Source of the DNA: Iphione sp. A-MEVVRFRX5
Lineage: Eukaryota
Assembly: GCA_976226885.1 (NCBI GenBank)
Contig: OZ320315.1
Location: 97,154,001 to 97,218,000 of the forward strand
Direction of reading: 5' to 3'
DNA: 64,000 bases
The notes beneath the pieces were generated by a model. The model had not been told where the DNA came from. It did not search any database and saw only the letters and a list, made by a program, of their open reading frames with translations. Each line of letters begins with the position of its first letter. The stretch's first letter is position 1. Shown here piece by piece: positions 1-16,106 of this stretch. The position numbers were made by a program, and so were the translations under genes.

Positions 1-539
1 ATGCCAGTGCTGACGGATGGTTGTCTTGGAAAACCGGATGTAGTGGGGGACCTCTGTATCCCAGCGAAAAACCAAATGCCACGCCGTTTAAGACAAACTG
101 GTCGTCTGGTTGACCCATTGCTGTATTTATCCACTTGTCCAGCTTGAGCGTGGAGTCGAGGTGTAGTCTCGCCCCTGCAGCATTTTGTACTCTAGTGCTG
201 GCCACAACATTGTACAAGTATGCCAATTTCTTCAGGAACTGTGCAACCGGCTCGGGCCAGGTCTCCGATGCCCCGCCAGGATATACTGCGGCAGCGGCAG
301 GACGATGGCGGTATCCTGGTATCTTGAAGGCCGTCACTGTCATAGTCCACTGAATGGGAGGACTCGATATCAGTGACAACATAACCTTGTTCGTGTGTCG
401 AGTGCCGGTGCACCTTCACATATGGGAGGGGGATGACCGCATGTAGCGAATAGTCCTTGGACATGGCCAAATTGTTTCGATGACCTAATAATGGTGTCGA
501 TGTGAGAAGCGGGGGCCCCAGGTCAAATAGTACTGCTGT

Positions 540-1050
540 AGCATCTAGTTTTTTTGGCTCCTTTTCTTGCTTCTCTTCTCGTCTCCACTTTGGCTCATCT
601 TGCTTCTCATTACGTTGTAGTTGCTGTTGCAGCTGAGCCTGTTGGTCTGATTCCTTTAAGCCAGGCGTACCGGCCAGGGGGGTGGGTGCGCTAATTGGTG
701 CGCCGGTAGTGGTTTCTGACCCTACTGGGTCACCACAGGCAGCAACAGAGACAGAAACAGGTATCATGGACACACCAACAGACACAGTACTGAGGGAGCA
801 TTCTACCCCCTCTGCACTGGTCTGTTTAGTCTTTTTAGCAAATCTGCCAGAGGAAGATCTCTTGCCTCTCTTTTGCTGACTAGGCTGCTCAGCTGGCATG
901 CCCATGATAGAGGAGGCCAAGTCCATGATACCACAATCACAAAAGCAATAAACACAAAATCAACAAAGCAAAGTTGAAAAAATACTCCCTTTGATGATCC
1001 TGATAGCAATAGAAATAGCAGAAAGATAGAACAGTGACAGAACAGTAAGT
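540..1050 (-). mobile_element. LINE ORF1 5-prime fragment embedded between DIRS gag and RT
   Basis: MGMPAEQPSQQKRGKRSSSG.. (about 730-907) is clearly homologous at DNA level to 36738-36910, which lies directly upstream of a LINE ORF1 coiled coil. Confidence 0.55.
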
Positions 1051-1888
1051 CTTCATGCACCCCTTCCTGGCACAGGCCATAGCGGTGTCCTGGCAGTCTT
1101 TGTTTTGCACACCGTACCAGCACACTGCGCACCTGTGCCAGTACATAAGTGGACCTTCCTTGTGGCCGTCATGTTCGCTACATGTTGACGAATTGTACAT
1201 GGGACATGGATGTCGCCTTTGGTCCTCCGTAAGGTTGCCCTTGATTAACGAGAGACGAGTATGGAGGCGATGAATATGGTCCTCCTGGAACCATGAGAGT
1301 TTTCCCTGGTCGATGTTATCAATAGTTGTGAGGGACCAATTCCTCACCGCCGGCCAGTCCCCATTGGTTGCATCCTCACATATCTCTGAGAGATGTATCA
1401 GGACATGGCATAGCTCGAATTCCATAGAGAAATCATCCAAGATCCGCACACAGAAGCCGAGGATATACTCCGAAAGCAAGAGGGTGTTTCCTAACAGGGA
1501 CAGCTAAATCTCGTGGAAGTGACACATAAGGACGCCATCTTAGATAAGTGTCCTGAGTGACTGGGTCTGGATATATCTTACCCGTCGCCGATCCAAAGTT
1601 GATATTCTCCCGTTCCAACCAGTTTCTTCTGCCATATTCTGAGTATCTGCCATTACGGTAGTCCTCAAGCGAGCGATACTGGTACGACTCAGTTCTGTGG
1701 TCGCAGTCATCCTTTGCCGATCTGCATTCCTCGCCTTTTGTTCGGTGCTCATGACTGCCCTCTCGGGAGCCTCGCTCCACCTCGCTACGTTTAGACTTGG
1801 ATTTGGACTTGGTTGTTGACTTGGGCGTCGAGGTCTTGACTATGCATTTCGCCTTGGTTTTCACGGCCTTGGTCTTTTTCCGACTCAC
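937..1888 (-). pseudogene. DIRS gag (frameshifted, Cys/His zinc knuckle)
   Basis: Overlapping ORFs 1433-1888 and 937-1479. Same W-x-x-VR-x-WS and PC-x-x-YN motifs as the gag remnant at 37590-37730. Confidence 0.75.
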
Positions 1889-2511
1889 CTCATGCTTCTG
1901 CTCCTCATGTTGAGGAGATTAGCAATGCACTCCTCAATACGCTTTTGGTCCAGGGTACCAGTAGACAGAACTGAGGGAGTAGAATCCGAGTTCTAGGGCT
2001 TGTCGTCGTGTGGTGGGTCATTTTTTTTCTTTTTTTTTAAACATTTCTTTATTTCAGGAATTTTGGGAGGCCTTGGAGGCCTTACATTTCCAGATCAGTC
2101 TTCTATGATTTCTTGCTATATCTTCGTTAAGTAAAAAGTAAAACATTGTTAGTACTGATTATGCATAATCTTTATTTGCGACGTATACCGAAACAAGGGG
2201 GGGGTCTCTCATATGAGAATACCCACCATTCTCATTGCATCATTTCTTCTTATCTTTCAGATTCTGACTATCAAAGTCTATTTGTTAGTAATGTGGTAGT
2301 GTGGAATGATTATGACGATGGATGTTAGTACTTGTATCAGTATAGTTTATGATAAGTAAATGATGGAGGAGAATTGCTGGGAAGAGAGTGTAGATGGGGG
2401 TGTTATGAAAGTGTTTTATTGCACGCTACCCTAGATGATTTTATGTGAATCCACGGACAGATGAGTATATAGTACAAACTCATATAAGCAATCTGGCCAG
2501 ATTGTTGTTCA

Positions 2512-5050
2512 TCATACTCTCCAATTTTCTTTCATCATTCGGTCAAACAGAAATTTCTTCAGTTGATTTTTAATATGGCTTATTGTTTCTTTGTTGGAAG
2601 CAATTGTATATTTCTGTAGGGCACTGGGGATAGTATTCCAGACCTTAATCTTGTTGTAATGAGGGGAATACCTGTAGGCCTCACAGTGCACCTTCAGCAT
2701 TTTTAATTGCAGACTAGTTTTTGCACGTGTATGCACCCCTGGGTGGCCATAGGTTGAGACAGATTCATCTTTAGGGGCTCTGCTACCATTGTTTTCTTTT
2801 ATGGCCATCAGTCCTAGGAAATATTCAATTCTCAAGTCGTATGGTAACAGGTGTAAATTTTGGTATAATATGTCAATGGGGCTTCGCCAATCTAAGAAAC
2901 AGTGCAGGACCAGTCTGTTCAAACAATTTGCAATACTCCTGAACCCAGGACTTCTTTTATTCAGTAGTAACTGGCAGCCCTGATCTGAGTATGGGACTAT
3001 GAAGGACTTAAATATCTGTTCTGTGCCCTTTTGAACAGGATAGTCAGGGGCTTCAAGGAATTCAGCACTCTAGTAATTTGTTTGGTCATTTTCAGGTGCT
3101 CTTCTAGATAGATGCCTAATATTTGACATGGTCCCTTTTATGAAGTCCTATCTTGTTTTCTATCAACTTTCCTTCCTGCTCACTCAATTTATTCCTCGGG
3201 TTAGAGAAGATTATCAGTTATGCTTTCTGATCATTTATATGTAGCCCATTTTTTCTACACCAATGCAATAATACCTGAAAGCCATTTTTTAATTTAGTAC
3301 CAACTTCCTCAGGTGTATTCCCAGTCATCACAAGAGTAGTATTGTCCGCATAGAGCTGACACTCACCCTTGGTAAATTGATTAAGGGGTACTCCTGCTCC
3401 CACTAAGTGTGGTTTAGATATCTTGTTATTCATTTTTGTGTGCTGTTTATGATCTGCAACCAGCAGTGATAGTTGTTTAGGCCAAATAAAGGTAATTTAG
3501 ACAGTATTATATCATGTTGGATGCTGTTGAATGCTTTAGCATAATCTATTAATAGTACCCCAGTTAACTGCTTCTTATTGAAATTTTCATATATAATATC
3601 TGCTAGTCTGACCACGGCGTCAGTAGTTGATCTATTTTTTCTAAAGCCAAATTGGAACTCATGTAGTAAATTGTTTGTCTCAATATGGTTATAGATTCTG
3701 GAATGTACAACCTGCTCAATAATTTCAGAAAATACTGGTAAAATAGTTCTTGGTCTATAGTTTGCTGCATTCTTTCGATCACCCTTTTTAAATAGGGGAG
3801 TTACCAACCCCTCTTTCCAATCAGCTGGTATAGTACCTTTCGTTAGTGAGGCATTTATTAGATGGGTTAGTTGATCTGTTAGGAAGAGCAGCACATTTTT
3901 TAAGAGATAACTTGTACACCGGTATAAGCCCGATGGTTTTGAAGTAACCTTTGAGAATTTCTTTGATCTCCTTCACAGTAGCTACTGTCATGTTAAGTCA
4001 AGGTATTCCTTCATTTTCTTCATCCAGTATGTTACTGAGTATTGGCAGCTCTGGATTTGATGATACATTCTGGGTCCCTACTGTTGCAAAGAATTTGTTT
4101 AAGTATTCAACACTATCCTCCTCATTTAGCAAAAGTCCGTTCTGATCATGTAATATAATACTTGGTTGAGATTTTTCTTTGGTCTTAAAAGCGTTCTTAA
4201 GGATTTTCCAATATCTTTTGGGATCATCCCGATTAGCATCTATTGATTTCTGGTAGTAAACACGTTTACAATTTTTTATTTTAGTTTTAACAGCGTTAAT
4301 TATGCGTTTCGCATATTTTATGTCAATAGGGTCCCTACTTCTCAACGATTTACGATAGACTCTCGATGACGGGATTCCATTTCCTGAATTTACAAGCTTG
4401 TTTATTGTATTTGGGTCCTTCAAATGGGCGTGAGCATGATGATCACTTAAATTCTATTTCCTTCGCACATATTTCAAATCAATAGTTGAGTTCACATACA
4501 GGTGGTCAATAAGTCGCACCCTTGCTACTTTCACGTGTAAATTCTGTTATTATTTGAGTATAGGAGTATTCCTCAAATAACAGTTTCAACCTTTGCGCTG
4601 GTGGATGTTCAAGGTTGGCATAGTTGATATTTACGTCTCCAATGAGAATCGTATTACCCCCCCTACGACCATCTATGGACTCCAATGAGTTCCTAATGTG
4701 GTCAAGAAAAACACCTACACTCCCAGATGGCGGTCTATAGATCATCCTTATGTTTATTTTCGCCCTTAGCAAGATTTGGAGCCAAAATAGCTCAATATCT
4801 TCATTATTGCCCTTTTTGGGTTGGATGAATCACGTATTTGAGTCTTACGATCTTGTCTTAACAGGTAATATCCACCAATTGCCAGACTCGGTGTTAAGAT
4901 ATTTGGAGTCAACCATGACTCAACCAAGATAATTAAGTTATAGCTAAATTTGTTGATTATGATCTTTAATTCATCCAGTTTCCCTTGAAGGCTTCGCACA
5001 TTCATGTAAAATATCTGGAGAGTCCATTTGGCATCGTGTGTCACCGCCAT
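2512..5050 (-). pseudogene. LINE A ORF2 (AP endonuclease + reverse transcriptase), fragmented
   Basis: ORFs 4766-5050, 4506-4772, 3998-4423, 3430-3894, 3218-3433 and 2512-2922 are collinear pieces of an EN-RT protein. Confidence 0.9.
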
Positions 5051-5689
5051 AATACGATCATTAATACAGTTTCATTTCTGGCATTATTTGACTTTATACT
5101 ATTTAGCATATTAAACAAATGATGGGCATACCGCTTAGATGGATATAGATAAATGAAATAATTATGTTGGAAAACACTGGTTGCCATAATTAATATAGGT
5201 AATGTAGGTCCCACCTTTATGATGAAGATACGGTTAGAAATGACAAAATAGGATGATGGTGACAAGGGTGGGGGAGGAGGCGGAGGCACAACTAAGATTT
5301 ACAGACTTCGTGAGAGTATTGTTGCATATCAGATATGTGGATTCACTATAGTTCAATCATCTGAAGCATGCACAATATGATATGAAGCAGTATTTATTTG
5401 CAAAACATTTATCTGTTTCAATGGCGTTGAAGACATGTTAGCCGAACATGGCAAAAAATACTATTCACTCAAGTTATTTGATTGCCCAATCGAAAAGATT
5501 TTTGAATTTCAAATGTTGAAATACTGCAATTACCAAGCTAGTGACCAAAATAGGTTTTATCGGGCAATACATAAATCCGTTAGTGGATAAATCCATACTT
5601 CATGTCTTTATAGGAGTGCGTTAGATAGGTCTAATACTAGAACCAGAATGGAAGTAGATGCTACCCATTTTCAACATGCACTCGGTAAT

Positions 5690-6376
5690 TCAAACAATAC
5701 ATTTTGTCAAAAATTTGACTAATTCTCTGGTTCGTTCCCAACGGAATTCTTCTTTTAGATGACATCCATCTGCTGTCTTATAATAACGATGATGGATTTT
5801 ACGGTTGTTGCGACTGTGAATAATACTTCCGACCCATGGAGTTGGCATATCTCGTTTAGCGTTCATTGCAGTAATATCAAGATTGATACGAATTATAGCA
5901 TCGTTTATCATATGCTGACATGGGTGGTCACTACCCATGTCTATATCCTCACTGCCATTGTATGCATTGTATTGGTGTAGGTTTGGTGCAGTAAAGGTAC
6001 TGATTGCAAACTTGTTGCTTTGAAAACGTCGTGACAGCTTCGTTTCTGCCTTGGCCAGCTCCCAATGTACACGGTAGTAAATCTCATCAGCTGATTCGTC
6101 TTGTGGCTGGATATTTCTTGCTGATTTTCCATTTGATAGGGTCACATATTCCAGGTGGGTGATATCATTTGTGCCAGCCAGGATGACTATCAGTGCCGGA
6201 TCCTGATTATACTCAAAATCGACAGCCAAATCGACCACCTCATTCAGCCTTCTTCCCGGATAGTGATGCATGTTTACAAACTGATCTTCTTTCCAGAGAT
6301 TATAACCAATACCCCTGCCGTTCGAGTCTGTGAACAAATAAACATCACTATGCAGATCCCAGATTTCACGAGCCAT
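5690..6376 (-). CDS. SGNH/GDSL-like esterase ORF (228 aa, open)
   Basis: Blocks FTDSNG (Ser), YPG, AGTNDI and ADGCHL (Asp-x-x-His) are all present. Its ATG overlaps the ORF1 stop (ATGGCTCGTGA, 6366-6376). Confidence 0.85.
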   Translation of the reverse strand: MAREIWDLHSDVYLFTDSNGRGIGYNLWKEDQFVNMHHYPGRRLNEVVDLAVDFEYNQDPALIVILAGTNDITHLEYVTLSNGKSARNIQPQDESADEIYYRVHWELAKAETKLSRRFQSNKFAISTFTAPNLHQYNAYNGSEDIDMGSDHPCQHMINDAIIRINLDITAMNAKRDMPTPWVGSIIHSRNNRKIHHRYYKTADGCHLKEEFRWERTRELVKFLTKCIV

Positions 6377-7612
6377 TTTCTAGCATTCGATTTTCGGCAT
6401 GTTTGTCCATGCCTGATCCTTCGTTACGTAGTGTCGTGCGGAGTTCAGTGAGTATATGACCCAGCTGATTCAGTCCTTTGTAGGTACCAGCTGTTATGAG
6501 GGGCGATCTGATTGGGGTGCCTGCCCCCTAAAACCCATCATTGCTTGCCTCAATTAGTAGGCAGTCACCACTCGATAGCAATTTACACTTCAGGTCATTG
6601 TTCTGGGTGAATTGGCAGTGAATATTTCCTTCATACAGGTAATCCTGTCTGCTTCCCAGGCCTCATCGAGTAACAACCTGTGCGTCTTTGCCTTTGTTTT
6701 GAAAGGGTCCTCGGTCATAAGAAGTTCACTTGCAAGAGTTTCGTCGCCCAATCGTTTGGCTTTGGCCACTGCGAATGCTTGTTTGACTGACGTAAATGCC
6801 ATTCTTTCCCAAATGAACTGGCATGAATACAAATTTGAAAAGGGATGGTGTTTCCCGGAGAACGCTAGGCCGGTTGTTGTTCTCACCTCTGAGGCCTTTT
6901 CAAGAGAAAGCTCGTCAGGCAGTTTATGCAAATTGTTTGTAGTAAACACTTGGCCGTTGATTGATAGTTTATCATTTTCCAATTTGGCGGATGCTCTGCT
7001 GGCTCGGGCATGGATAAGTATTTTTCTTAGCTCAGCCCGTTTATTTCTGTCTGATAGAGACAAGTCTTCGTTTATCCAAATCCCGGGGTGCTGTTTCAAT
7101 TTTGGTTTGTTCCCCAGGATTTCATGTTTCCATGACACCTTGAGGAAACTGACCATTATGTCTCTGTTCTTTCCAAATTTCTTTGGGCCCAGGCGAATGC
7201 ATTGGTCAATCTCGTAAGGCTGCATGGTTGGTGATAGCATTTGAAAAAGACCAAGCACCTTGGTCATTGTACTTAGTGGTGACTCAGACTCTTCCTCTAT
7301 TATGCCTGACATTATGATGTTATTCTTGCGTAATATTTTATCATGTTCTTAGGGTAGAATTATCATTGCGTAAAACTGTTACCTCAGCTTGAAGTCGGCT
7401 CACCTCACTTTTCTTGGACTGACCCCTAATTTCATCCACTAGTCTTGAAGTCTCTTCACTATTTTTATTATTAGCATGGGTCCATTCAGCTACCTCAGGT
7501 GTTAACTCATCATTTTTTGCTGTATTAGCTTTTATTGACTGTGTCATAAGAGTGAAGGAAGATGCAATTGTGCTAATATCACGGACAAGCTCTTGTAAGT
7601 TCGTTATATTTT
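6366..7612 (-). pseudogene. LINE A ORF1: coiled coil + RRM/CTD fused to a NADAR domain
   Basis: CIRLG..RDIMVSF..IWINEDLS (L1-like RRM/CTD), then FSGKHHPFSNLY..SVKQAF..AKA..W. After a frameshift near 6600: KFTQN..LL.SG..LIEASNDGF*GAG..GLNQLGHILTELR. Confidence 0.85.
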
Positions 7613-7945
7613 GGTAACGATTCTTCCTAGATCATTACCTGCCAAGTTACTCCTCACCTCACCAATGACTTGATCAAACATATCATGGAGTACATCATAC
7701 ATATTTACAATCTGAGTGCCATGAAAATCATCAAATTTTACCTCATATGTTGTATCAATAGCTCCATCTTTCATGAGAGTTCTTTGGTGTCTCTTTCTCA
7801 CTGTGTAGGGTGGTTTAGACAGTGTTGGTTGTGATGCTAGTGGTGCTTTGTCGTTAACCTGAAGCTTTCTCTTCTTCAGTGGAAGTGGTGGTGGTGGTTG
7901 TGATGGTACACTGAAGGCCTCTGCTGAGTGGGTTGGTTGTCGCAT
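7604..7945 (-). pseudogene. Polinton/Maverick-type protein-primed DNA polymerase ORF, N-terminal fragment, truncated at the LINE A junction
   Basis: DTTYEVKF..LHDMFDQVIGEVRSNLAGNDLGRIV resembles the N-terminus of invertebrate Polinton PolB ORFs as I recall them. No polymerase catalytic motifs remain. Confidence 0.6.
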
Positions 7946-8019
7946 GGGTTCAGGTGAGCGTCTCCTGTTCTCAAAAGGACCTCCTTTCCTTACTCTGGAA
8001 CGTGGCGACCTCTCAAACT

Positions 8020-8405
8020 CAGTCGGGTAGACACTGTTGGATCATCATCCTCCCATTCCCCGTCTGCCACACAAGCATTGACCAATTCTTCAATGGACTA
8101 AAACAATGTAAAACCATTTTCTGTAAAGATGTATATCACAGACACAAGAGAAAGATAGACAGTACTGAAATATTTTTCTACCTCTTGACTGTCCACAATA
8201 TGAAAAATGTGTTGAATTCTCATTCATCATGATTTATACCAAAATAATACATATAAGTGTATTAACATATACACACCTCATCTTCATGAGCCACTAAGTC
8301 ATCAGTATGCATTGATTCTCCATTTTGATCAGAGACAGTTTTGTCCTCATGATCGTCACCACTCTCCCAATCTTCCAGACAAGCATTCATCAGCTCTTGT
8401 ATGGA
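8020..8405 (-). other. Two paralogous exon-like segments upstream of the PolB-like ORF
   Basis: tttcag|SIQELMNACLEDWE..EDE|gtgtgt (8405-8277, 129 nt, phase 0) and ttttag|SIEELVNACVADGEWEDDD (from 8097). Confidence 0.45.
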
Positions 8406-8825
8406 CTGAAAGTATATTATACACCAAAAGGAAAAGATGAATTTACATTTTTTGTCATTGTGATACATTTCAATGATCAACATGTAATTTGACCAATATG
8501 GATATGGACTTGAAAGAAAAGTAATCTAACAATGTCAAGCCTACACAAGCCTATAAATCGAACCCTTCAAACTGAAAATTAATTCATGAATTCACAGAAT
8601 ACATTTGGTAAGTACTGTAATTCTTTCTGCTGTGAATACCATGTTGTATCATAATATAAAAATTACCTCTGGTACATGATCAGGAGAACTGAATACTTCT
8701 TCGACATCCATAGTATTCAACATATCAAGAACAGCTTGATTCAATTCATCCAGTGTCCCAGGAGACATGGAGAGATTCATGTCAACGTTGTCCATCTGAA
8801 AAAAAAAAATTTTAAAGATCTTTTG

Positions 8826-9260
8826 CTTTTTAGGATGGGTCTACTAAAGTCGACAGAAAGAGCACTTTAACTTGTTCAAAGTTCATGTATTTTATATCTA
8901 CAGAAAGCTAAAGGGCTGTTCTTTTCAGATCTGCATTCCGTTTTTCTCTATCTGTACTGTAAGTGTCTAATAACAGTGAGTGTAATCAGCAATCGGAAAG
9001 CGGCCGACTGGGCGAGCAGCATAATGTGCATGTTAGGGTAGGTCTACTAAGGTAGCCCAAAACAGCACTTATACTTGGCCGATTTTAATAAATTTTATGT
9101 CTACAGAAAGCTAATACTCTGCTCTTTCGAAATCTAAAATCCATTTGTTTCTATCTTTATTTTAAGTGTCTCAAAATGGCGAATAGATTTGCCAACAGGA
9201 AAGCGGCTGACTGTATGAGTGGCAACCAGAAAAGCTCAGTTTAGGGTGGACCAACTAGAA
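8826..9260 (+). repeat. R1: degenerate ~203-bp tandem repeat block
   Basis: Core GGTCTACTAA(A/G)GT at 8838 and 9041, degenerate at about 9245. Shared motifs TATRTCTACAGAAAGCT, AAGTGTCT and GGAAAGCGGC. Confidence 0.85.
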
Positions 9261-9614
9261 ATTGTCTGCAGTCTATGATCGGAATTAGATTCAACAACTT
9301 GGCTTGGAATGTTGAGAGTTCACTGATTCAAATAATACAACCAGTTTGACTGATATATTAACACCCATGCTACGAGGAGAGGTTTTGCCTATCAACAAGT
9401 GAAGAGCAGTGGATTGATAATTAAGTACCCACACTTTAGGGGGTTTATGACAGGGCTATACAACAGGACAGAGGTCAGTAAAGAGAGCAACAGATCCACG
9501 TCCTCAAGAGGAAAACAGTCTATGGGGAGGTCAAGTGTTTGATACGAAGTTGCAGTATCTGATATGTGAGTATTGAATCTGTATCAGTCTTTGTGAATCA
9601 ATGAGACAGGCAAC

Positions 9615-10196
9615 ATGGATTTCTTCAAATACTATTTAATTTTCACTGTGTTTGGATGTGCTCAGTCAACCTGGATATTATGTGGTCAACCCCACGTTTG
9701 CTACTGCTCCATGGATGGGGTAAATGTACGCTGTATGGGACCTCAGGTCATCCTGTTTCCACCCTTTTCAGTTGCTACTCATAGATCAACACAGATCTTA
9801 ACCATACAAGATACCAATATACGGAGCATCAAAAATTTGAATCTACACACATGGCCCGCACTTCAGATATTAAACATCCATAGAAATAACTACATGAAAA
9901 ATTGTCAACAGGAGAAGGAGACACTTATACTGGAAGGTAGAAACATTTCTGTTGTTAATGTACAATGTGACCATCCAGGGTCTACAGAAGAAAATCAGAT
10001 TTTTAATGTAACATTGATGGGAAATGACACGACTATGAGTGTAAATGACACAACACCAAATGTGGTGATAGTCAACAGTAATATGTTGTTTGCCTACATA
10101 ATACCTGTCATCGTTTTTGTTGGCATATTCATTGTGCCTGTTGCAGTTCTCTCATTGAAAAAATGTCGCAAAGGCAAAGAGACTCATTGTCAATGA
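9615..10196 (+). CDS. Minimal LRR type-I membrane protein (193 aa)
   Basis: Signal peptide, LRRNT C..CYC..C, about 2 LRRs (ILTIQDTNI, LQILNIHRN), Cys cap, N-glycosylation sequons NIS/NVT/NDT, TM segment LFAYIIPVIVFVGIFIVPVAVLSL, basic short tail. Intronless and intact. Confidence 0.8.
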   Translation: MDFFKYYLIFTVFGCAQSTWILCGQPHVCYCSMDGVNVRCMGPQVILFPPFSVATHRSTQILTIQDTNIRSIKNLNLHTWPALQILNIHRNNYMKNCQQEKETLILEGRNISVVNVQCDHPGSTEENQIFNVTLMGNDTTMSVNDTTPNVVIVNSNMLFAYIIPVIVFVGIFIVPVAVLSLKKCRKGKETHCQ

Positions 10197-10394
10197 AATA
10201 TACAAACCCACTACTACAGACTTTCTATAGTAGACTGAATTTTGATGATCCAAAATTTAACAGAAAACTAAGACTCCACCTTTTTAAAAACTGTATACAG
10301 TTTGACTCTATACCTCATACAAGTTTTAACAAATGTGAGGGGTTTTGTTGATCAGAAAATGGTGACCTGTATGAACAACAAGTCATAGTAAAAA

Positions 10395-10925
10395 CATGTA
10401 TTAGGGTAGGTCTAAAAAGTGTTCAGAAAAGGCTATGAATAGGAGAGACTGTGGTCTTTTTAAACATGAAATCCATTTGTCTCTATTGGCAGTGTCTAAA
10501 AAGGATGAGTATAATTGCCCACGGCTACTGCGGTAGTGGCCGGCCGGATAATGGGTTTGACAGTGGGTATACTAAAGTGGGAGGAAAGAGCACTTATACT
10601 TGTCCGATTTCTATAAACTTTACATTTCCTAAATGCTGAGAGTCTGCTCTTTCTAACAAGCTATGGTATAACTTGGTAGCATTTGTCTAAATGTCTGAAA
10701 AAGTGAGCGGATTTGCCAACAGGAAAGCGGCCGCCTGTGTGAGCGGCATAATGTGTATGTTAGGGTAGGTCTACTAAAGTAGCCCAGAACACTTCTAATT
10801 ATCCGATTCTCATAAACTTTATATTTCCTAAAAGCTAAGTATCTGAAATCCGTTTCTCTCTATCTGTATTTTAAGTGTCTAAAAATGGCGAGCGGATTTG
10901 CCAATCTGAAAGTGGTCGGCCAACT
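10395..10925 (+). repeat. R2: ~203-bp repeat block (about 2.7 units)
   Basis: Cores at 10409, 10566 and 10768 (GGTCTACTAAAGTAGCCC). Same unit motifs as R1. Confidence 0.85.
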
Positions 10926-11521
10926 GTTGATTGTGGGTGTACTCTGCTATTTCTACATGTATACATAACAAAACTGTACAGGTATTTTTGTATCTAATAC
11001 ATGCAAGTTTAACTGTTGTATTAAAAAGAGTGTACTTACATTCACTTGGGGGTCCAGATGGATGTTTCCTTATTCAGAGAAATTGTGTATGTCCAAAGGG
11101 ATGATTCCTTGCCACAGGTGTTTCTTCATCCAAAGAGAGACGTTTTCTTGTCTACAGGAGTGGTTTCCTTGACAGAATATGCCTTCAGGGTTTCTCTTGT
11201 GCCTTTTCAATCCTCCAGGAGGATCCCATTAACGAATCACATCTCTGGAACTTTCCTACATATTATCTAACCAATCAGTGGACATTTCTCATTTGATCCC
11301 CCCTCCCTCTTCCTCCCCTCTCCACCTTACCTACCTGTCATGAAAAAAAAACCGTTTCCTAACATTTCCTACCTTTTGTGAAACTAATTGAATTAAACTT
11401 CAGACATATATTTATAAATATGATTTCACTAATATTATCCTATATTGATACTACCATACACTATTATCCCTACCAATCTCCTCCTTTATAAACCCTCCTT
11501 TTCTTTTTTCTGTCACATGTT

Positions 11522-12481
11522 TTACCACCTTTCTTCATCTAACTTTTTCATCTGTTCACCTACCTTTCTTGCCATCTCATGAATTATTTCACCATCATTA
11601 TCCCATGACTCTTCCTCTATATTCCCTTCCTCCTTCTCCCATAACTCTTCCTCATTATTCTCAGTATCCCGGTTCTCCTCCTCCTCCCACTCTTTCTCCT
11701 CCTCCTCCTCTACCTCCTTTTTCCTCACTGTTGAAGGTGTCCAGATGGAATGGTAAACCTTAGGCTTAACTATTTCATTTTCTAGTAAGTATTTTATAAT
11801 ATGTTTTAGATCAAAACCAATGGAACAGTATCGTTCTAGGGTTTCCAAACAGACTGCAAATAGTTTGTGATATCTTATATAGCCAAAACTGCAGTTTGAA
11901 TTCAAAGAATAAAATGTACATTTTTGATCTGTGAAATATAAATTGTTCATGATCATATTCCTGATAGATCCCTTGATATCTGACTTCCATAAAGGTTCAA
12001 AACCAAAGTAGTCATCAAGTTTCTTCTTCTTTGTAAAGCGAGAATGCTTTATTATATCATCAATATATATCCTTGACATGATCATGTTAGCCAGGTACTG
12101 GGCATGTCCATAATCTACACTGTTATAAAGAAAAAGACCATGCACCAGTCTACATGCAAACTCCAAATGCCACATGTCATCTGGTAAGGATTTTTAAAAT
12201 TTGTGAGAAAAGGAGTTTAGATAGGCATGCTCATCACAAAATAGACTGTAATACATAATAGGTTTTCCACATCTCACCTTTATCCCATCCTGTGCTTCAC
12301 AGAACCTGTCTTCTCTTCTAAACCCTCCTACCTTCCTCTTTTTTGGAGCTGATCTTCCCGTCAGTGCAGCAACAATGTTTAGAAAAATGTACATGGAATA
12401 CATTTCTCTGTATGTGTGTGTCTGTGTGTTTGTGTGTAGTTTTCCCTGAGATGAATCCTCATTTGAAAATATAAATCCCAA
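11522..12481 (-). pseudogene. Putative nuclear protein: PKKRKV NLS, C-x8-C-x9-C-x2-H motif, acidic C-terminus (one in-frame stop or intron)
   Basis: ORFs 12194-12481 and 11522-12175 are in the same frame, separated by a single TAA (HKF*KSLPDDMWHL). Confidence 0.55.
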
Positions 12482-12689
12482 TGAGCACTTATGCTAGATC
12501 CAGAGAGATCCTAGAGATGTGTCCACTGTAGAGTCAAGCCAGAAAATGACACAGATTCGAACTAGTGAACCCCAGAGATCAACTACAATCATTACCTTGA
12601 ACATCTGTTCGATTTGATATCACTTTTATCTGGACGACACACCTGGACATTCCAGGTTCTTTGCTTATTGTGAGTGGTTATCAGCTTCA

Positions 12690-13200
12690 CCCGATTGGGT
12701 GAATCTCCTGCCCCCGTTCATGCATGTAAAATAAGGATAGAAGCCCATAAAGTATACCAAATTAAAGAGGAGACTTTCAGCTTTCAGAAAATATAAGTTA
12801 TGTGGTGATACGACGATTAAAACTGATGAAAAAAAATTTCTTTGTAGATGCACCCTCAACCACTGTAGATGCAGATTATGTGATTGCCGCTCGCCGCTTC
12901 CCAATTAGTGATACGTTTTGTACAATTATGAGCATACTAGACTAGATAGAGACAAACAAATTACAGATTCAAAAAGCCCAGAATCGCTGCTTTCGGCCGC
13001 TTCCCGACTGGGGATACATTTCATACAATTACGAGCAGATCGTAATAGATAGAGACAAACAGATGGTAGATTCAGAAAGCCCAGACTCTCTGCTTTTAGG
13101 AAATATAAAGTTTGTCTATATCGGACCACAACATGGTTAGATAATCGTCTCTGAATAGACCCCCCTATCAAACAGCTGTTCATCCGGTCGCCGCTTTCTG
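12690..13200 (-). repeat. R3: inverted block of the same repeat family with an internal ~103-bp partial duplication
   Basis: The reverse complement contains AAACTTTATATTTCCTAAAAGC (identical to R2), GGAAGCGGC and GTTTGTCTCTATCT. Confidence 0.75.
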
Positions 13201-13346
13201 ATCGGTTGCAATTAAACCTCCCAGGTTCGTTTTATTACCCCCAGCTAAACCAACATGCATGTGTGTCCCATTCTGTCCCACTTCCAACATCTTTAGAGGA
13301 TTTTTGAACCGTCTCAGACCTGTTTGAAACTCCTTCAGAGACAGAC

Positions 13347-14414
13347 ATGGCTAGTATGACAAGGTGGTTGATTTTCTTCTTGTGCTTGATTACATACACC
13401 ACTGGATACAGATGTGGCAGGTATTGTCGATGTATACCACAAAGAGGATTGATAAGTTGCTCACATAGAAATATCAGAAACTATCCAACATTTACCACCA
13501 CACATGGATTCACCAGGCTAGATTTGAGGAGTAACAGACTGACGCATTTGCCTGAGCCAGGATATACCAAACTCTTCACTAAGATTGATATTAGAGGAAA
13601 TCCGATCGATTGTGCGAAGGTTTTTGACAACATATCTTCTGTCATCATCCAGGATACATGTGTGGTTGTGAACAGGGCAGCTCTTAATACATCACCTCAG
13701 CCAACTGTCAAGGAACCTACCTCTCAACCAGTAATGACAACCACCACCACACCCAGTTTTGTGGATAGGCCTGCACTTAATACATCATCCTACAGGAAAA
13801 CTCACAATGCACATCAACCCTCTGATCATGTTGAGGAGCCTTCCTCTCAACCAGTGATGACAATAGCCTTCAGTACAACTGGTGCCATAGGATTTTGTGT
13901 CCTGATGACTGGTTCAATGTGTGCATTCATCTTTAAAACCAAGCGGAGCAAGGATGTGAGAAAGACTGTGCAAACTCAGGATGATGGACTTGGCATCACT
14001 AGCTCTGAGACGTCCTTTGTGTCATCATCACATGGTCATATTGAAGCTGATGGAAACAAGGTGACAGTGGCAGAGGTGCATAAACCTTCCTCTGCACCCT
14101 TGGATTTGTGTACACCAATGGAAGTCAGCACTGAGGGAGATATTTCTTCAGAGAATACATTTATGGCTGTGGCTGCTCCCTACACTCAGTCTAAAGGGAA
14201 CATTATTCATAACAAACGTCGTACTAGGGCTAGGCCCTACGAGGCTCCTCCTCCTCCACCGCTACCATCACCACCACCACTACCATCTGGGGAGAAGCCT
14301 TATAAATGTAAGAAACGATGTGGGACTTACAATCTGACTCTAATGAGGACTATCAAGGCAAGCGTAAAAAGTGATTGTCATTTGTTGTTTCCCCCATATA
14401 GAGTAAAGATGTAG
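13347..14414 (+). CDS. Minimal LRR type-I membrane protein (355 aa) with mucin-like stalk and long cytoplasmic tail
   Basis: Signal peptide, LRRNT (CGRYCRC..ISCS), LRRs LDLRSNRLTHLP and IDIRGNPIDC, duplicated ALNTS..EP(T/S)SQPVMT stalk, TM segment, Pro-rich tail. Intronless and intact. Confidence 0.85.
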   Translation: MASMTRWLIFFLCLITYTTGYRCGRYCRCIPQRGLISCSHRNIRNYPTFTTTHGFTRLDLRSNRLTHLPEPGYTKLFTKIDIRGNPIDCAKVFDNISSVIIQDTCVVVNRAALNTSPQPTVKEPTSQPVMTTTTTPSFVDRPALNTSSYRKTHNAHQPSDHVEEPSSQPVMTIAFSTTGAIGFCVLMTGSMCAFIFKTKRSKDVRKTVQTQDDGLGITSSETSFVSSSHGHIEADGNKVTVAEVHKPSSAPLDLCTPMEVSTEGDISSENTFMAVAAPYTQSKGNIIHNKRRTRARPYEAPPPPPLPSPPPLPSGEKPYKCKKRCGTYNLTLMRTIKASVKSDCHLLFPPYRVKM

Positions 14415-14699
14415 TTGGAAAAATATTACCAACGTTGTAACAACAAATATGCTTCTCACTTTTTTGTAGGGTAGTACCTTTCTTTAGTATCACATGTAGT
14501 TTTTGTTTATGCCACCTATATGCAAGAAAGATGTAGTTCTCATGTGGGTAAAAAGAAAGTTTTTTTTCTTTAGCCTCATGTAGATACATCTTTAAATGTA
14601 ACCTGATGAATGTTTTGAAGAGACAGTAAAGTGATTCATGTAAGACTGATGTTGGATTCTTTTTATTGATAATACATTTATATTTGGGTAGGGGAGGAT

Positions 14700-15130
14700 A
14701 AGAAGGAAACTGACCGACTGTACGAGCAGCATAATTTGTATTTAGGGTAGGTGTACTAAAGTGGGCAGAAGGACCACTTCTAATAATCATATCTACACAT
14801 ATTTTATATCTACAAAAAGCTGAGTCTCTGGGCATTTCAAATCTGTAATCAGTTTTTCTCTAGCACTAGGCTAAGTACCTGTAATCGGCGAGCGGATTCA
14901 CCGATTGGAAAAGCAGCCGACTGTACAAGTGGCATAATGTATGTTTTAGGGTAGGTCTACTAAAGTAGCCAAAAATACCACTTTTAATTATTTGATTTTC
15001 AAATATCTTATATCTACAAAAAGCTTGTACTCAGAGCTTTTCGAATCTGAAATCCGTTTGTCTCTATTTGAGCTAGAACAGTCGTAATCATACAAAACAT
15101 ATCTTCAATTGGCAAGCGGCCGACAGGGTA
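14700..15130 (+). repeat. R4: ~204-bp repeat block (2 units)
   Basis: Cores at 14750 and 14954. Same unit motifs as R1 and R2. Confidence 0.85.
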
Positions 15131-16106
15131 GCGACCGACGGGAAGAGGTGATAGGAAGATACCGATTATTCTTTGATGCTACCACTGTTTCACACATACC
15201 TACATGTTAAAATCGAAGCTTAGAGACACTCCTTTCATCTAGATGTAATCCATCTGATACAAACATGAAAAACGAGCCCCTAGGTGTCATACAAAGAGTA
15301 GGGAACTACAACATGTGTTATCACTTTGATAATCTCTCTGATAAAGTATGGCAAACGAACTCTTAGATGTGGTAGGGGGAGGGAGCACTGATGGTGGGGC
15401 TAAAAATTGATCTGACCCAGGTGCTCCTTAGGTTCCTCAGGGGTCTACCCATGAATACCCTTACCGGGAGGACACATGGGCTACTTGCAGGATTTTCCCT
15501 AGTAGGCTTTGATAGTCATGCCTACTAACCATCTTGTGTTCACTAGCTTTGGTTACAACCAGAAGTATCTGCCCTATTCTGCCTTTCGGGATGGACAATA
15601 TCATGTTTTGGGTGTCTATTCAACAATCTCCGATGTACATGTCTGATCTCTGATGTACATGTCAGAGCTTTCCGTGTGAAAACAGTGCAAACAACAAAAA
15701 GAGTGCAGGAATATCGAATGCGCTGAAAACAGCAGGAATGCATAGTATTTAGAATGAAACGGGCAAGCATTGAGTACAGGGTACATTTCATAGGCATTCA
15801 CCCCTGGTCATATGTTATATCATCAGGGTAATAAACATTCTTTATAAACAGTCTTTTTGTTTGACACAGTTCTTATCTCCAACTCAGCAATGATAGATGA
15901 GATATTCATAACTATAGTAAACATTTCCATGTAGATACATGATTGAGAGTCCAAAGCTGCTCAATCTATTGAGTGAGTATGATACTAATACAGACGACAT
16001 TATTAATTGATCATACCCAAACTTGGTTACCAGTATAGAACTATATCTCACACCTCGCACTGAGAAGGAATGCTTCTGTTACATGGACGGGTCTTTAACA
16101 AAAACA

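Follow-up and report, generated by a model that had tools for sequence, protein, structure and literature searches.

What kind of element do the repeat-separated genes in a stretch of DNA from Iphione sp. A-MEVVRFRX5 belong to, and what does the repeat do there? The stretch (hereinafter, the window) spans 64,000 nucleotides (nt) of contig OZ320315.1, positions 97,154,001 to 97,218,000, and contains several genes on alternating strands that are separated by blocks of a ~203-bp repeat, denoted R. An earlier note, made from the sequence alone, proposed that this was the accessory region of a Polinton or another endogenous DNA virus, where the repeats would drive expression or allow genes to be swapped and inverted as cassettes. 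As described below, R is tied to Polintons, patches of sequence are exchanged among its units, units are gained and lost, and the gene order varies in the R-bearing arm of the element and is fixed in its R-free core. Given the sequence features discussed below, the explanation that we favor, with reasonable but not high confidence, is that R is a Polinton-borne converting repeat that is exchanged across two PolB lineages and probably serves as a portable, orientation-independent promoter or enhancer module.

The R blocks consist of 2-8 units and lie between accessory genes. Pattern searches that started from the repeat returned 47 matches versus 0 in the control and 120 matches versus 3 in the control (the best 40 of 197 candidates were scored in one search, and 100 of the 120 pattern matches were listed). 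The 53 loci fetched from these searches included one chance match without the repeat and 52 R-bearing loci; among the matches listed, Polinton genes or termini were found near R in 50 of these 52, the linkage that the earlier note had proposed to check. Five further, unfetched pattern loci are located 6-8 kb from an integrase of the type found in the second lineage (family 2, see below). Conversely, when the search started from the integrase, the R arm was present at 24 of 25 loci of the carrier (family 1), at one of them by position across an insertion, and the remaining locus is a truncated copy. R accounts for 30-43% of the arm. Exact scans of viral and metagenome contigs with the 21-mer core and a comparison with Rfam gave no matches, and a capsid query against viral contigs gave none that was confirmed.

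By the features that define membership, family 1 is an ordinary Polinton, as the earlier note had supposed. Sister copies, which are 96-98% identical to the window copy outside the R blocks, encode a 1485-amino acid (aa) PolB (PF03175, E 1.5e-44), an rve integrase (E 1.6e-13), an A32-type ATPase (Pox_A32, E 1.2e-6), a PC4-domain open reading frame (ORF) and a double-jelly-roll capsid protein; the capsid ORF has no direct Pfam match and was recognized by an Atlas score of 0.98 to clusters in which 14-30% of the members carry PF21738. The elements are ~16-21 kb long and are bounded by terminal inverted repeats (TIRs) of 65-100 bp that start with AGCAGC or AGTAGT. In 13 of the 22 listed elements, a duplication of the 6-bp target site is directly readable. 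No adenain-type maturation protease was found among the 7 core ORFs scanned, with two short ORFs between the ATPase and integrase genes lying outside the scan.

The units of R undergo gene conversion across blocks, subfamilies and two PolB lineages. The 147 distinct units are 67% identical within a block, 64% when compared between subfamilies and 63% when compared between families, and among 134 dereplicated units linkage (r2) drops from 0.18 to 0.02 within ~30 nt, a value as low as which was reached in none of 500 permutations. Divergence between sister copies is higher in R than outside it in all 8 family 1 pairs (3-18 fold, for example, 2.1 versus 0.4% and 8.2 versus 0.9%) and in 6 of the 7 family 2 pairs; blocks of unequal length inflate some of these values, and blocks of equal length show the same effect. 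The non-coding terminal spacers of family 1 are as quiet as the genes. Sister copies often differ by entire units, and their differences within R are clustered. In 7 of 9 tests, the presence of both alleles in the blocks of other elements exceeded that in each of 100 simulations of point mutation (for class G, defined below, the pool included other members of G). In one pair, a tract of ~105 bp is a copy, in register, of the corresponding part of the neighboring unit. The blocks begin and end at many phases of the unit (start 1-159, end 72-202).

Family 2 (16 loci) is a capsid-less element of ~9 kb organized as TIR-R array-PolB-ATPase-integrase-TIR, with TIRs of 157-184 bp, so that the R array is the sole DNA between the terminal repeat and PolB. 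Its PolB combines N-terminal C2H2 fingers with four PolB motifs and has no match to PF03175 or another Pfam PolB family and no sequence match in PDB; judging by the absence of PF03175 and the portion of PMC8502044 covered, this suggests the Beta class. The integrases of the two families are about 49% identical and the ATPases about 35%. The two lineages share nearly identical DNA, and only in R: at thresholds of 60 nt and 90% identity, 155 of 155 matches fall in it, the longest spanning 504 nt at 94% (four whole family 2 elements and seven R ends were compared with 240 kb of family 1 loci including core genes, and overlapping stretches were counted twice). Such recent exchange of DNA implies that the lineages met in the same nucleus as recombining templates. 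Arrays are absent from families 3 and 1b, which are sisters of family 1; the repeat profile detected single degenerate units upstream of PolB, in 3 of 5 family 3 loci (E 5e-8) and, for family 1b, one strong and one weak among 5 loci, and detected none in 3 more distant Polintons. These single units overturned a reading of blastn results by which the sister families lacked R. Some family 1 copies also have a single unit near the left TIR. The degenerate units indicate that the R unit is old and are compatible with transfer either way between families 1 and 2.

Several loci combine parts of these families. L068 (C10:17.83 Mb) and L128 (C10:111.71 Mb) are 8-kb chimeras with family 1 ends, an R array, an ATPase of the family 2/3 type and a shortened family 1 capsid module. 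At L071-L072 and L136 (C15:5.81-5.83 Mb), a family 1 class B arm with the 5' part of PolB is joined to a whole family 2 element, which is either a nested insertion or a recombinant. The integrase parts of the family 2-like L203 (C11:50.22 Mb) match family 2 (83%) and family 1 (79%), a possible mosaic. Different repeats of 79-90 bp occur upstream of PolB in sister families, at the place of R1 in family 1 (L186:2099-2375, L193:2776-3578 and L161:7142-8099).

The copy in the window is truncated, lacks the integrase and consists of the following parts.

7616..8026, minus strand: 5' fragment of the Polinton protein-primed PolB, 97% identical to aa 3-139 of the 1485-aa PolB of L022.
8265..8800, minus strand: gene X, spliced-looking exon pieces upstream of PolB, kept in family 1 copies.
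8835..9226, plus strand: R1, 2 units (repeat profile).
9615..10196, plus strand: LRR1, with a predicted signal peptide, a mini-leucine-rich repeat (LRR) ectodomain and a transmembrane helix (weak match to Pfam LRR, E 0.02).
10240..10934, plus strand: R2, 4 units, two of them partial (repeat profile).
11522..12403, minus strand: gene Y, with a basic N-terminal motif, a helical middle and an acidic tail (from sequence).
12685..13208, minus strand: R3, inverted, 3 partial units (repeat profile).
13347..14414, plus strand: LRR2, read from sequence as a signal peptide, Cys/LRR-like head, S/T-rich stalk, hydrophobic segment and long tail.
14746..15137, plus strand: R4, 2 units (repeat profile).
15138..15423, plus strand: terminal spacer and inner part of the TIR (comparison with sister copies).

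Most of what the earlier note described is present in the sequence, namely the four blocks with R3 in inverted orientation, the core spacings of 203, 202 and 204 bp and the alternating gene order. R is indeed absent elsewhere in the window: all matches of a profile of natural units are confined to 8835..15137 (E down to 6e-52; best E ~3 in the reversed-sequence control). The frame 7616-8026 proved to be the start of a Polinton PolB, with 133 of 137 aa identical to a sister copy. The listed gene order was right and overlooked the X exons between the PolB fragment and R1; R2 was found and made too short, its actual start being at ~10240; and the minus-strand ORF described as a nuclear localization signal protein is real and was misbounded, given that Y extends as far as ~12400, with a premature stop near 12194.

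The PolB gene of the window copy is broken off at ~7615 by an insertion that, judging by its ORFs, resembles a long interspersed nuclear element, and no further PolB was found within the window or 20 kb upstream. The minus-strand ORFs of the insertion (window 5690-7631) include a coiled-coil, a NADAR-like domain (sub-threshold match, E 8e-6) and a weak GDSL-like ORF. At the other end, the right TIR is cut at ~15423, and its outer end is missing. R3 contains no core and has one unit fewer than in sister copies. The LRR1 tail is frameshifted relative to the aligned sister copy and has lost the conserved N-x-I-Y motif that ends the LRR1 tails in families 1 and 1b and that resembles a sorting signal. 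The top Foldseek matches of the LRR1 model are LRR ectodomains (probability 0.96-0.98, E 0.025-0.07); LRR2 has no Pfam match; Y has a single homolog outside and no match in Pfam, Atlas or the fold search (predicted local distance difference test score of the model, 56). The basic motif PLPLKKRKL is present in the N-terminus of PolB (window 7870-7890) and again in the X exons of sister copies. The rest of the window (1-7600 and 15424-64000) appears to be a nest of decayed retroelements of the reverse-transcriptase and tyrosine-recombinase types.

The order of the core genes is identical in all 19 family 1 copies fetched, with two chimeras set aside, whereas 34 arms show 8 gene arrangements, which settles the question, raised in the earlier note, of whether the order between blocks varies. 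Written from PolB outward, the classes are as follows.

Class A (n = 5, including the window copy): X-R-LRR1-R-Y-R(inv)-LRR2-R.
Class B (n = 7): X-R-LRR1-LRR2-R-Y-R.
Class C (n = 1): X-R-Y-R-LRR2-R-LRR1(inv).
Class D (n = 8, plus 1 without Y): X-R-Y-R(inv)-LRR2(inv)-LRR1(inv)-R(inv).
Classes E (n = 3) and F (n = 1): LRR2 and inverted LRR1 after Y, with differing R orientations.
Class G (n = 6): X-R-Y remnant-R.
Class H (n = 2): X-R-Y remnant-R-LRR1-LRR2-R.

The sister family 1b, which has no blocks, keeps PolB-LRR1-LRR2 in 5 of 5 copies. Clean joints at R are seen between H and H2, where a 2.3-kb match at 93% begins inside R with unlike DNA on its left, and between A and D, both of which have X and Y, with LRR1 and R in between in A. 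When modules are compared by class (leaving out the PolB 5' rows of A, B2 and H, which are cut by stretch borders), the class nearest to A depends on the module: for the ATPase it is class E (98%), for the PolB end class H (94%), for X class G (98%), for Y class D (93%) and for LRR2 class F (88%). Inverted arrangements of another kind are the fold-back derivatives at C2:7.911-7.935 Mb (L032-L035) and C15:45.796-45.817 Mb (L036-L038), in which two inverted copies of one arm are joined in the 5' part of PolB and which have TIRs and 6-bp target duplications; the former contains three additional 2-kb tandem copies of an R piece, X and the PolB start, and a fold-back of family 2 is found at C1:168.86 Mb (L175-L176). 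These derivatives, with their target duplications, show that strand-switching in replication occurs, a possible R-independent route to inversions. One family 1 arm (L112, L135; C17:16.288-16.301 Mb) is split beside Y by a ~11-kb insertion with retrotransposon-like ORFs.

Several indirect signs point to transcription control, with an enhancer or promoter function of R being likely from the sequence. Every arm class has an R on the 5' side of X/PolB, and the CpG observed/expected ratio is 0.85 in R units versus 0.23 in the arm and PolB. The ATG of X immediately follows a pyrimidine tract and AG, likely a splice acceptor; this acceptor-like context is found in 9 of 9 copies shown, in each of them 29-184 nt from R1 regardless of what lies past R1. 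Of the 147 units, 110 contain TATAAA on one strand. Given that R is found in both orientations with respect to the same genes, an enhancer or a two-way promoter fits better than a directional promoter. The palindromic core described in the earlier note is present in some units and is weakly kept, with perfect 5-bp arms in only 27 of 147 units and inner 3-bp arms in 86. Neither a 10-10.5-bp A/T periodicity nor a special hairpin (z -1.6 and 0.1) was found in R units.

The scenario that we propose is that one ancestral unit, located close to the termini and upstream of PolB, would have multiplied to form the blocks. Where genomes replicate together, crossing-over between direct blocks would then add, drop and move cassettes, and every gene would retain an R at its 5' side. 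Most inversions would be due to fold-back errors during replication and not to flipping between R blocks, and the capsid-less family would likely retain R for the same transcriptional input. A number of observations weigh against this scenario and against the favored role of R. Mosaicism between subfamilies extends to the R-free core, so that recombination does not need R, and several switch points lie outside R (within LRR2, in the X introns and at both ends of the inverted D-H match in LRR2). Moreover, fast turnover of R makes alignments stop at its edges even without crossing-over. Although gain, loss and exchange of cassettes at R, the last of these envisaged in the earlier note, are supported in several cases, routine inversion between inverted blocks is not: Y is flipped in 0 of 14 copies with inverted blocks around it, and a herpesvirus-like flip-flop inversion was accordingly rejected. 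One family 2 pair shows no excess of divergence in R, the pool test did not rise above the null in 2 of the 9 cases, and the TATA-like motif is directed away from PolB in family 2. Finally, two R arrays, L209:3800-5400 (C17:79.05 Mb) and L197:4640-5510 (C1:128.57 Mb), have no detected Polinton genes or termini within 10 kb.

A bolder extension, which we put forward only tentatively, is that a community of animal Polintons could have R in common as a module for control and exchange: R would turn accessory genes into self-contained cassettes, would be kept hypervariable through templated patch conversion, possibly outrunning host small-RNA or zinc-finger silencing, and would let a capsid-less Polinton of another PolB class use the transcription or packaging system of the capsid-encoding family. 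An alternative of rather low probability is that Polintons carry R as a minisatellite-like repeat, functionless or selfish, which spreads by recombination into tolerant intergenic gaps, the gene shuffling being a by-product or unrelated. That the units are only ~65% alike, that block ends fall at many phases, that the nearest sister families have one degenerate unit or none detected and that core mosaicism arises without R are all compatible with such a repeat; it is harder to reconcile with the retained CpG and conserved short motifs, with the invariable position of R 5' of X/PolB in all arm classes and as the only DNA upstream of PolB in family 2, and with the persistence of single units upstream of PolB in sister lineages.

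By analogy with the homologous-region origins of baculoviruses and the packaging repeats of adenovirus, R might instead be mainly an internal origin helper or a packaging signal, kept by the capsid-less family to use the family 1 capsid; we consider this unlikely. In family 2 and in the majority of arm classes, an R block adjoins a TIR, and deleted derivatives of 2.7-3 kb retain a TIR with R; this retention may reflect mere proximity, however, no R was detected beside the right TIR in class C, and R blocks also lie deep between genes. Protein-primed elements initiate replication at their ends. The core half-site resembles the TIR motif at nt 32-44 in 3 of 8 family 1 TIRs (p 0.003 in D and E and 0.013 in C, all below 0.02 and uncorrected), whereas in the other 5 the likeness is non-significant. 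A host satellite, miniature inverted-repeat transposable element (MITE) or nucleosome-positioning repeat inserted into Polintons, the alternative raised in the earlier note, is largely refuted and very improbable: the unit length is near that of the nucleosome repeat and the two loci at C1 and C17 lack Polinton context, but 50 of 52 loci are in Polintons, A/T periodicity and a special hairpin are absent, the variable end phases are incompatible with a MITE, which needs fixed ends and should be dispersed genome-wide, outside other elements, and blocks of 2-8 units with 67% identity within versus 63-64% between elements are not the long homogenized arrays that satellite DNA needs.

Returning to the favored reading of R as a Polinton-borne exchanged module, its carrier shares with Polintons/Mavericks (adintoviruses) of the Alpha PolB class the PF03175 protein-primed PolB, the integrase of the rve type, the A32-type ATPase, the double-jelly-roll capsid, TIRs, a target duplication of 6 bp and a conserved core combined with an accessory region (PMC8502044 and PMC8097293, in the parts covered). 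Accessory regions are also present in vertebrate Mavericks (PMC8097293). Unlike the elements described in those parts, which mention accessory regions and no such repeats, family 1 has dispersed converting repeat blocks, 8 arrangements and no protease ORF found. By analogy, R resembles the homologous regions (hr) of baculoviruses in layout and variability, yet is not one: multiple intergenic blocks of one repeat (with an imperfect palindromic core in some units of R), variation of unit number and variable genes between blocks are common to both (PMC4758234, as far as covered), whereas R has a 203-bp unit with a poorly kept palindrome, is limited to one arm, is common to a second replicon and is carried by a linear integrating 20-kb Polinton, not a baculovirus genome. 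Furthermore, gene order changes around R, in contrast to the 17 Anticarsia gemmatalis multiple nucleopolyhedrovirus isolates that stayed collinear (PMC4758234). Mosaicism and capsid-less modules are already known in this virus group (bioRxiv 10.64898/2026.10.13.758929; PMC8502044, in the parts covered). The covered part of the former describes transpoviron-like capsid-less modules of protein-primed PolB and integrase, polisuvirus mosaicism and internal repeats near module borders, and proposes tandem integration and replicase mobility; family 2 is similar in being a capsid-less replication-integration element beside capsid-encoding relatives with mosaic exchange, and differs in that R is the only near-identical DNA between the lineages and undergoes ongoing patch exchange. 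In the literature searched, no repeat that is dispersed, undergoes conversion and is common to different Polinton lineages was reported; supplements and Repbase, outside the scope of the search, could hold one.

How Polintons acquire, drop and reorder accessory genes, how these elements are transcribed and whether capsid-less ones depend on capsid-encoding ones are three questions that are tied together here by one short non-coding module. The ~200-bp size of the unit makes R directly amenable to reporter and binding assays, and R itself bears the traces of a recent exchange of DNA between lineages in which identity is 49% for the integrases and about 35% for the ATPases.

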